64,000 nucleotides of DNA from the NCBI RefSeq assembly GCF_056746865.1, contig NZ_CM163382.1; one strand, written 5' to 3'. Position numbers and translations under genes: made by a program. The notes below the pieces were generated by a model, which was given only the letters and a program-made list of their open reading frames with translations, did not search any database and was not told where the DNA came from. This document shows, piece by piece, positions 10,849-12,301 of this stretch (the stretch's first letter is position 1; every line of letters starts with the position of its first letter).

Positions 10849-11415
10849 TTAGCAGGAAAATAAGCCATTGAATATAAAAGATAAAAATGTCTTGTTTACA
10901 ATAGAGTGGGTTTCCGGTGCTCCTTTGACACTCTCTCCATATCCCTCAGGTCCGGCACCAACAGATACCACGTTATTTTCTCCCGACACCTGTGAGCCAT
11001 GGCCCAGAGCTACAGAGCCTGAAGAATTTTCTATTCCAGCCCATCCCCCAATAGCAACACTCTGCTGTGAATTAAGTACCTCAGCGCTCTTACCTATGGC
11101 AACACCATATTTTGACTCAGCCTGACCGGCATCCCTTCCCAGGGTGACACTGTGTGGAGAATTATACACTCCCGAAAAAGAGCCAAACTGAAGACTTCCT
11201 GGTGAATCCATGTTAAAAGCGCCACCTCCCAAAAGGAAAGTGTTATTAGCTGTACCAGTTGAATTCGTAATAAAAGAGTTTTCTCCAATCAGTAAGCTGG
11301 AAGAATTAGCATCAACAGGCCCTGTCAAAACAGCCTGAGCCTGAGCCGAGAGCAGCAGGGCCACACTCACTGCCAGCGCGCTTTTCTTTAAAAAAGCATC
11401 ACGTCTTTTAAGCAT
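10849..11415 (-). pseudogene. trimeric autotransporter adhesin gene, N-terminal remnant truncated at resistance-module junction
   Basis: Signal peptide and head region shared with the full-length copy at 44242..46008 (identical ...[37 protein letters not shown]); homology stops near 10898; no anchor domain. Confidence 0.7.
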
Positions 11416-11903
11416 TCTGTTATTCTCCTGTATTATTACTTCACCAGCCAGAACGGTAGTGCGGAGCAAAAATACAGTGATAAGAATCCTCTTTTATTAA
11501 TTTAATAATGCCAGGAATATTATTGTGTATAATATGCGACCTCAATTTAAGCAGCAGAAAACGACTGGCATTAAAATCATTAAATTATAAACATATACAA
11601 CTTTGTAAAGGTGGTTATAATAAACCTGATTACTTTAACGTCTGTATACCTGCACTGCTGATATCACAAAACAATAAAAATCCTGGTTAATATCTCTGAT
11701 GATTGAATGAGAAATTCACGATGTCTGGTGAGAATTCTGTTCAAAACGAGGAATGCAGACGTACATGTGGCAGGCATGGACTTCTACCAATTTAACTTTT
11801 TTCCTTCCTTGTATTTACACATTGCACATTTTGCGCTACAAAAATTTCACGTGGCACGCACCACGTGATCCGTAGAAAAGCCTCTTGTTACGAATTTCGT
11901 AAA

Positions 11904-11936
11904 CCGCACGTCTGTCTGGTCGTGCGGATTTTTTAT
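11904..11936 (+). terminator. candidate rho-independent terminator (CCGCACG...CGTGCGG then T-run)
   Basis: Inverted repeat followed by ATTTTTTAT read directly; same structure in copy B near 46500. Confidence 0.4.
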
Positions 11937-12154
11937 CCGTCAACTTCACATGAAACCCGCCAGAGCACTGTTTCCGGATTCAGACATCAGGCATATTATT
12001 ATCCACGATGTCGTGAACAAGATCACACTTTTGCAATTCCTTTATTGATCGAAAGCAGTTAATCACGGAAATTAATTACCGGAGTGAAAGCATTTGCTAT
12101 ATAAACATTCCCAGAAGACATCTTCATGTTGAATATTATTCCCTTATTGACTAG

Positions 12155-12188
12155 CCCCTCTGACAGAATTTCAGAGGGGGTTTTTTAT
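12155..12188 (+). terminator. candidate rho-independent terminator (CCCCTCTGA-loop-TCAGAGGGG then TTTTTTAT)
   Basis: Read directly; conserved in copy B near 46755. Confidence 0.45.
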
Positions 12189-12301
12189 CAGTTTCACCAT
12201 CCAACCCTGTACGCCAGAATGGTTTCACTGTCACTCAGTTCTGCTATTGCCTTTTTCATCTCCCTTTACCTTACGTTCTGCCAGAGTCTGAGCCATTTGA
12301 A

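Follow-up and report, generated by a model that had tools for sequence, protein, structure and literature searches.

Two copies of a modular adhesin locus lie as direct repeats in a 64,000-nt stretch of DNA from NCBI RefSeq assembly GCF_056746865.1, contig NZ_CM163382.1 (the window, whose positions serve as coordinates throughout). Copy B is an intact trimeric autotransporter adhesin gene of 588 aa (44242..46008, minus strand), and copy A is a 188 aa remnant (10849..11415, minus strand; ATG at 11415) that stops at the edge of a sul2 resistance cluster. Both genes are on the minus strand, so that "upstream" here means higher coordinates. The reading that we favor, with a probability of roughly 0.8, is that the two are alleles of one modular adhesin locus, that copy A was truncated by the end of a CR2-sul2 unit, and that the alleles were united through a crossover in an insertion sequence (IS) transposase gene, tnpA. 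An original prediction for this stretch had described paralogous adhesin loci with a shared regulatory region, one of them truncated by the resistance module, as a substrate for antigenic switching. It is partly supported, being largely right on anatomy and truncation and wrong or unproven on paralogy and switching.

Pairwise DNA alignment, the check proposed with that prediction, gave long, high-identity matches in two segments. With blastn, 11332-12401 aligns to 45925-46995 (91.8% over 1075 columns, E = 0) and 10908-11016 aligns to 45489-45597 (108/109 identical, 99.1%); a self-comparison of the window also found both pairs, in direct orientation and with a spacing of 34.58-34.60 kb. The predicted repeat of 10898..12301 and 45480..46896 is thereby confirmed with nearly exact coordinates. 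A correction concerns its lower end, placed at 10898: similarity to copy B actually ends at 10908-10911, and the sul2-side sequence ends at 10911-10914. In a sliding comparison, identity is 98-100% from 11350 to ~11550, falls to 60-74% at 11550-11680 (the divergent block, foreseen at 11560-11680 versus 46160-46270), and returns to 92-100% across 11680-12301. The head cassettes (type A, 11017..11331, minus; head B, 45598-45924) are merely 34-58% identical, and beyond them the copies rejoin, as had been claimed, in the almost identical neck-proximal segment 10908..11016 (minus), which forms the 3′ homology flank of the head cassette. Past 12301, identity is 66-84%; this similarity at 12302-12401 is IS-family homology outside the adhesin module, and at 12301, its outer end, the repeat stops at a recombination joint that falls within a fragment of IS66-family tnpA.

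The sequences on the two sides of this joint match two different island types. Our comparisons covered 5,426 complete Escherichia coli genomes and 72,556 plasmids (PLSDB). To the left, window 1-12301 is essentially the W2-5-type resistance island; copy A is exactly of the W2-5 type over 10854-12301, and every difference falls at or after 12302. To the right, 12269-41280 is 99.97-99.99% identical to AR_0085 and EF5-18-41, where the tnpA of the joint belongs to an IS66-type element beyond a serine-protease autotransporter (SPATE) gene. The copy B region (45380-47140) has zero mismatches to EF5-18-41. The two matches overlap in a crossover zone of 33 bp (12269..12301, not assigned to a strand) that is identical to both parental types and lies inside the IS66-family tnpA homology. 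The slot beside ProQ/YfjJ/AlpA genes that allele B fills in AR_0085 and the window is taken in W2-5 by remnant A. Each allele is thus identical to a same-slot allele elsewhere, and we read A and B as allelic versions of a single island locus rather than products of an in-genome duplication. The claim of paralogous loci is not borne out: each copy is 100% identical to its same-slot counterpart elsewhere, and the window joins two island types.

These observations suggest a history whose order of events we infer. Related E. coli integrative islands with a YfjJ/AlpA/YfjI/ProQ-like backbone carry the locus as a fossil IS66 tnpA fragment, an AT-rich non-coding leader/promoter region of ~860 bp, a signal peptide, an (AQ)n tract, an exchangeable head, a conserved neck, a stalk with a variable number of 33-aa repeats, and a YadA-type anchor, in this order. 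Copy A would derive from an intact head-A allele of the type that ECCNB12-2 and SFE8 still carry. A CR2-sul2 unit (floR-tetA-strAB-sul2) would have been joined by its attR-type end into the neck, with loss of the stalk, the anchor, and downstream genes; element-end joining, either site-specific or rolling-circle, followed by deletion would account for this junction. The truncated form would then have spread widely together with the resistance cluster. Finally, an arm comprising resistance cluster, remnant A, and leader would have been joined to the far end of an AR_0085/EF5-18-41-type island carrying allele B, by homologous crossover in the 33-bp identical tnpA patch, leaving two direct repeats 34.6 kb apart.

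The truncation of copy A can be placed almost to the base. By translation, its ORF encodes the signal peptide, head A, and the initial half of the neck, which closes with ...GAPET, followed by 18 unrelated residues that are read from the end of the sul2 element to a stop codon at 10849-10851. With neither stalk nor anchor, the product cannot act as an autotransporter; it is a remnant and not a member of the trimeric autotransporter class. As the original prediction held, copy A is a dead remnant cut by the resistance module, ending exactly at the sul2-strAB boundary. The identical ORF in RefSeq is WP_000919994.1, a "hypothetical protein." Elsewhere in RefSeq the remnant is named "Tat pathway signal sequence protein." This twin-arginine (Tat) label looks unsupported, with a TIGR01409 score of 7.6 bits against a cut-off of 16.7 bits. 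The motif KRRDAFLKK in the remnant is one residue off register relative to the SRRxFLK consensus.

What abuts and truncates adhesin A is the end of the CR2-sul2 unit, 303-304 bp that lie upstream of sul2 (10609..10911, minus) and finish in GAGTGGGT. The sul2-outward sequence 10609-10911 is common to >5,000 plasmids, and the match of the window stops at 10914. Three independent contexts (pSMS35_130 together with a Klebsiella plasmid; an Edwardsiella plasmid; this window) agree on the last common base, ...ACAATAGAGTGGGT, and differ beyond it. The same end beside three unrelated flanks marks a discrete element end. It lies 304 bp upstream of the sul2 start (10608), the common part ending at 10911-10912. 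In the literature, CR2-sul2 units are bounded "304 bp upstream of sul2," where the GIsul2 attR, with core GAGTGGGA, has its 3′ end (PMC9376610). GAGTGGGT at the element end has 7/8 core bases of GAGTGGGA and carries GAGTGGG. The intact adhesin has ...CGGCGGGTTTCC... at this place, and the join falls within the shared GGGT. Judged by these letters, the right end is the published attR-type boundary of the CR2-sul2 unit. That ISCR2 contributes its oriIS end on the sul2 side was considered and rejected: the sul2-upstream segment shares no repeat of ≥60 nt with the ISCR2 fragments of the window, and attR is placed there in PMC9376610.

Inward from this boundary, sul2 (9793-10608), aph(3'')-Ib/strA (8929-9732), and aph(6)-Id/strB (8093-8929), all minus-strand genes placed by way of the W2-5 annotation, form the right part (8093..10608) of a ~9-kb floR-tetA-strAB-sul2 cluster at ~1950-10911. 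From ~1950, the cluster reads truncated ISCR2, a DUF3363 gene, floR, lysR, a second ISCR2 fragment, tetA, tetR, strB, strA, and sul2. The outermost ISCR2 copy (~1950-2612) lacks its N terminus and adjoins a papI-like gene (W2-5 annotation). The left boundary expected of the unit, 119 bp upstream of an intact rcr2 at attLR/terIS, is not present, and the unit is truncated there. Beyond the cluster, window 1-2022 holds the end of a dGTPase gene, a papA fragment, and regulator genes resembling papB and papI. The cluster is thus flanked by what remains of a fimbrial operon on one side and of an adhesin gene on the other.

Copy B, identified by Pfam, PDB sequence match, and translation, is arranged as signal peptide, (AQ)n, head type B, neck, six 33-aa repeats, coiled coil, and YadA-type anchor. 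Pfam places YadA_anchor (PF03895) on residues 530-588 (E 4.2e-16) and YadA_stalk (PF05662) on residues 175-201 (E 0.0018), and the YadA anchor 2lme is the sole strong PDB sequence match (E 2.5e-17). NCBIfam adds sub-threshold YadA, EmaA, and Vomp matches over the C terminus, with YadA at 68 bits against a 750-bit cut-off. Copy B has the anchor and stalk features that define trimeric autotransporter adhesins (type Vc). Its stalk array (44711..45483, minus; from self-comparison and translation) consists of 99-nt (33-aa) tandem repeats, and all six are perfect; the repeat number across strains is 2, 3, 5, or 6. The ATG has AGGAG in front of it. As read from its sequence, copy B is an intact adhesin and probably expressible.

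The head of copy B spans ~130 aa, followed by a neck that ends ...DAATKGQ. An AlphaFold2 model of residues 1-239 (predicted local distance difference test, pLDDT, 74) shows a disordered neck, a continuous helix starting at residue 188 (pLDDT 78-93), and a head in which strands of 5 and of 3 residues alternate, one period taking ~15 residues, although the protein is an obligate trimer and a model of the monomer probes its fold poorly. The Pfam match to the YadA-like beta-roll head (PF05658) has an E of 0.35. A Foldseek search of the head model against PDB, made with this same poor probe, returned nothing below E 0.09 and generic beta-solenoids only, so that any assignment of the head fold would be tentative.

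Several features near the ends of copy B bear on its variation and possible regulation. An (AGCCTG)n hexanucleotide repeat at 45913-45943 (copy A, 11332-11346) encodes (AQ)n near the signal-peptide cleavage region and differs between alleles from ~2 to ~8 units. As the repeat is in frame, such changes alter length and do not switch the gene off. A small sigma-70-region-4-like helix-turn-helix (HTH) gene comes next after the adhesin gene in 5/5 intact loci examined. In the window, this gene is interrupted by an IS2 copy (41281-42610, with InsC and InsD ORFs at 42155-42565 and 41292-42197), and an IS421 copy (42888-44219) stands between it and adhesin B. If the HTH protein regulates the adhesin, the regulator is inactivated here by IS2.

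Upstream of the signal peptide, the two loci share ~860 bp of non-coding DNA, in line with the ~850 bp predicted. The element spans 11416..12278 (minus) in copy A, with an alpha block allele, and 46009..46873 (minus) in copy B, with a beta block allele at ~46155-46254. A fossil 5′ fragment of an IS66-family tnpA (46874..47055, minus) bounds the adhesin module in every locus examined, and in seven loci from other strains it is annotated "transposase, frameshifted, incomplete." The GC content of the element is ~0.39-0.41, compared with ~0.51 in the flanks. Between the tnpA fossil and the ATG, these ~860 bp contain no minus-strand ORF of ≥40 aa. Rfam gave nothing at the gathering score in the whole window; two sub-threshold hits (E 0.15 and 0.41) fall within 10600-12900. 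Alignment of six loci shows near-identity throughout except for a block at -245 to -145 from the ATG (copy A, ~11560-11660), which occurs as two discrete alleles: alpha in window A, AZ159, ECCNB12-2, and SFE8, and beta in window B and LH50-c.

Two terminator-like hairpins are kept in both copies. One is on the minus strand ~430 nt upstream of the ATG (11847-11868 and 46440-46461), and the second is on the plus strand ~740 nt upstream (12155-12179 and 46748-46775). Around the hairpins (11690-12150), identity is 96-100% between alleles whose heads are ~50% identical. The hairpins may serve as insulators of the adhesin promoter or be the sign of a small transcript not yet annotated. A candidate promoter for the adhesin itself, TTGAGG-17-TAATAT at about -128 to -100, would lie downstream of the first hairpin; it was read by eye and is absent from the promoter scan output. 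Were this position correct, the variable block would be an upstream regulatory region.

Among the complete E. coli genomes, the upstream element is found in 371-372 genomes at 521 places, all chromosomal and all with ≥90% identity, with up to eight copies per genome. Sensitive blastn for distant versions of the element in E. coli found none under 90% identity. In a large subgroup of the genomes that carry remnant A, the leader match stops at window ~12094, which suggests a second recurrent truncation or insertion in the leader.

The modules of this locus have been shuffled between strains. Partial and complete relatives carry at least four head types (A, B, C, and D), two neck types, and at least two stalk starts, S1 and S2, of which S2 is GINNTDAATVGQLNERF.... 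All four combinations of heads A and B with S1 and S2 exist: A with S2 in P0002, P0003, P0005, and ECCNB12-2; A with S1 in P0004; B with S1 in the window and P0007; and B with S2 in P0009, P0012, and P0013. Head B also occurs with the other neck type (P0008), and head C is found with an alpha or a beta upstream block. Since heads, stalks, and upstream block are shuffled across strains, the conserved flanks have served as sites of recombination between strains, and they account for the exchange of heads. Many database relatives are broken by frameshifts or IS ends (P0010, P0015, P0023, P0054, P0056, and P0057), and the family seems to be often inactivated. P0015 and P0056 share the same 11-residue tail despite different heads, and P0057 ends in the same 16-residue read-through as the IS2 junction of the HTH gene in the window.

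Recombination at these loci is thus a reasonable part of the original prediction; antigenic switching is not shown, and the window bears no visible trace of exchange between A and B. Remnant A could in principle serve as a silent donor whose head replaces that of the resident intact adhesin at locus B by gene conversion, as pilS does into pilE, with the two-allele block as a second, regulatory cassette. The structural prerequisite is there: the diverged head of the partial copy is framed by flanks of 98-100% identity, ~200 bp at 98-100% toward 5′ and 109 bp at 99% toward 3′. The reassortment of heads relative to stalks and upstream alleles across strains also speaks for it. We nevertheless consider both the donor role and the regulatory cassette very improbable. 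No gene-conversion patch between A and B was found in the window, where A is of the W2-5 type and B of the EF5-18-41 type over the whole module. The wide spread of the remnant is explained by hitch-hiking with the resistance cluster, and most genomes that carry it have a single copy of the element (median 1). Moreover, a reciprocal crossover between these direct repeats would remove 34.6 kb, with gene B and the SPATE gene on the lost segment. If the donor role were real, uptake of the resistance island, whose cluster is in ~5% of complete E. coli, would also bring a new adhesin specificity.

Two further explanations concern how the copies came to share one stretch. A locus duplicated in this chromosome, with divergence of the copies and a later strike of the resistance module on one of them, would likewise leave direct repeats within 64 kb, and genomes with as many as eight upstream elements do occur. 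Such a history is hard to reconcile with a copy A that is base for base of the W2-5 type together with its flank, a copy B that is of the EF5-18-41 type together with its own, and the placement of each allele in the same slot beside the ProQ/YfjJ backbone in those strains. The outer end of copy A is an IS66 tnpA crossover rather than the end of a duplication, and heads at 34-58% between flanks at 98-100% fit cassette exchange better than gradual divergence; we hold in-genome paralogy to be quite improbable. An assembly chimera, in which two islands of one strain were joined in silico at a short IS66 tnpA stretch, is unlikely. It would explain why the joint is unique to this window and why it falls in repeated IS-type sequence with an exact overlap of merely 33 bp, and strains PKF4 and HCM-27C-1 hold both island types at distant sites. 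However, 33 bp is below the k-mers or overlaps behind the final contigs of most assemblers, the reading register of tnpA is kept across the joint as expected of a homologous crossover, and elsewhere the window runs collinear with real genomes, to the left as well as to the right of the joint.

Union of two alleles by a crossover in tnpA remains our preferred account, and three observations weigh against it. The 12269-12301 joint occurs in 0/5,426 complete E. coli genomes and 0/72,556 plasmids and is thus known from this sequence alone. The backbone at 47438-48764 is a mosaic that exactly matches neither parent, so that a strict two-parent history is a simplification. Lastly, on its left the cluster ends in a truncated ISCR2, within the pap regulatory region, in place of attLR; with this border truncated, the unit is not a clean insertion, and extra deletion steps must be assumed. 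The mosaic segment contains the YfjJ/Gp2-like gene and shows interleaved differences from the EF5-18-41 and W2-5 types, and its flanks match one of them almost perfectly. We also considered whether the W2-5 locus is a deletion product of the window type, formed by recombination between A and B, and rejected this: W2-5 has an insert of a transketolase fragment and IS1 that is missing at window 47055/47056, intact head-A loci share that insert, and W2-5 is of the alpha type throughout.

Directly beside the crossover joint is the SPATE gene, which encodes a serine-protease autotransporter (S6 peptidase) of 1291 aa (12840-16715, minus). Its passenger is closest to the hemoglobin protease Hbp/Tsh (1wxr, 1263 bits, residues 53-830). 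The protein is presumably shorter than Tsh, and its C-terminal part differs.

The search for a full-length copy A in other genomes, also proposed with the original prediction, was informative. Segment 10915-12400 (≥80% coverage) is present in 262/5,426 complete E. coli genomes, always on the chromosome and with W2-5-like neighbors, and head-A DNA is present in 266/5,426, mostly as the truncated remnant. Intact head-A genes were found in ECCNB12-2 (513 aa) and SFE8 (546 aa). Both have the transketolase fragment-IS1-ProQ context seen in W2-5, followed by an HTH gene. Judged by these intact genes, what was deleted from copy A is ~344 codons of stalk and anchor, plus downstream genes. The same sul2-adhesin junction is on one plasmid, the IncI-gamma/K1 plasmid pNDM5_LS003 (NZ_OP290546.1), with island backbone genes. 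This conjugative NDM-5 plasmid carries remnant A together with floR, pap regulators, and YfjJ-like, AlpA, and YfjI genes, a gene content indicating that a large piece of a chromosomal island was captured on a plasmid.

The adhesin family is thus present in ~7% of complete E. coli genomes with its four or more head types, two neck types, several stalk types, and a strikingly conserved leader of 860 bp. Its commonest sequenced form is a dead remnant, fused at sul2 to a chromosomal resistance cluster of wide occurrence. The exact sul2-adhesin junction is a handy marker for tracking the resistance island, the annotations of the remnant are in need of correction, and the locus is a neat case of adhesin evolution by cassettes.

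Neither the resistance cluster nor its boundary at sul2 is new (PMC6392093, PMC9376610). An 8.9-kb chromosomal sul2-strAB-tetRA-floR cluster was described in E. coli sequence type ST167 strain Sanji (PMC6392093). It agrees with the present cluster in gene set and size, and Sanji is among the 262 genomes with the identical sul2-remnant junction; the difference is that the cluster is attached here to a second island type. The truncated adhesin is not mentioned in the Sanji paper, and "YadA" is absent from its text (PMC6392093). For the CR2-sul2 unit and GIsul2 (Leclercq 2016, cited in PMC9376610), the attR end has the same 304-bp boundary with a GAGTGGG core at the end, and resistance genes are likewise placed between sul2 and ISCR2 copies. 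The window differs in having neither an intact rcr2 nor attLR at the far end, and in that the target is an adhesin gene and not the guaA-proximal attB.

Among known adhesins, Yersinia YadA shares with copy B the C-terminal anchor (PF03895, 2lme), a coiled-coil stalk, the neck motif ...RRIINVSDG...DAATKGQ, an N-terminal head of short periodic strands, and the order of signal peptide, head, neck, stalk, and anchor. In contrast, head and stalk sequences are unrelated beyond generic repeats, as the 68 of 750 bits for NCBIfam YadA indicate, and the copy B gene is chromosomal and island-borne whereas YadA is on pYV. The eYadA of avian pathogenic E. coli (APEC) strain XM (PMC12955052) was rejected as an equivalent: it is at another locus (cueR-ybbJ) and is 23% identical over the anchor region. 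EibA/C/D/E match copy B at 38-62% identity in the part of stalk and anchor that is proximal to the membrane (residues 374/471-563, tblastn). Membership in the Eib family was rejected, as the alignment is limited to this anchor-proximal part. A phmmer search of PDB with copy B did not retrieve the EibD crystal constructs, and thus gave no similarity in head or construct stalk. Copy B also has another signal peptide and, unlike the prophage-borne Eib genes, is not in a prophage: its neighbors are YfjJ/Gp2-like, AlpA, ProQ-like, and YfjI island genes and IS elements rather than those of a lambdoid prophage. Many partial relatives are called "immunoglobulin-binding protein" in GenBank, a label that, to go by sequence, would seem unsupported as a functional call.

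A literature search for a named description of this adhesin family found none, and it is apparently an unnamed modular family of E. coli trimeric autotransporter adhesins. Modular or mosaic adhesins with cassette exchange are known from Moraxella UspA, Bartonella Vomp, and Neisseria pilE/pilS. In general terms, the present locus shares with these systems a variable receptor-binding module between conserved segments, variation in stalk repeat number, and the presence of several copies in some genomes. It differs in that shuffling is seen here between strains only, and no programmed or high-frequency switching is evident. Set beside these known systems, the window adds a new, unnamed adhesin next to a known resistance element; this is fairly ordinary genomic-island biology, and it leaves the current understanding standing.

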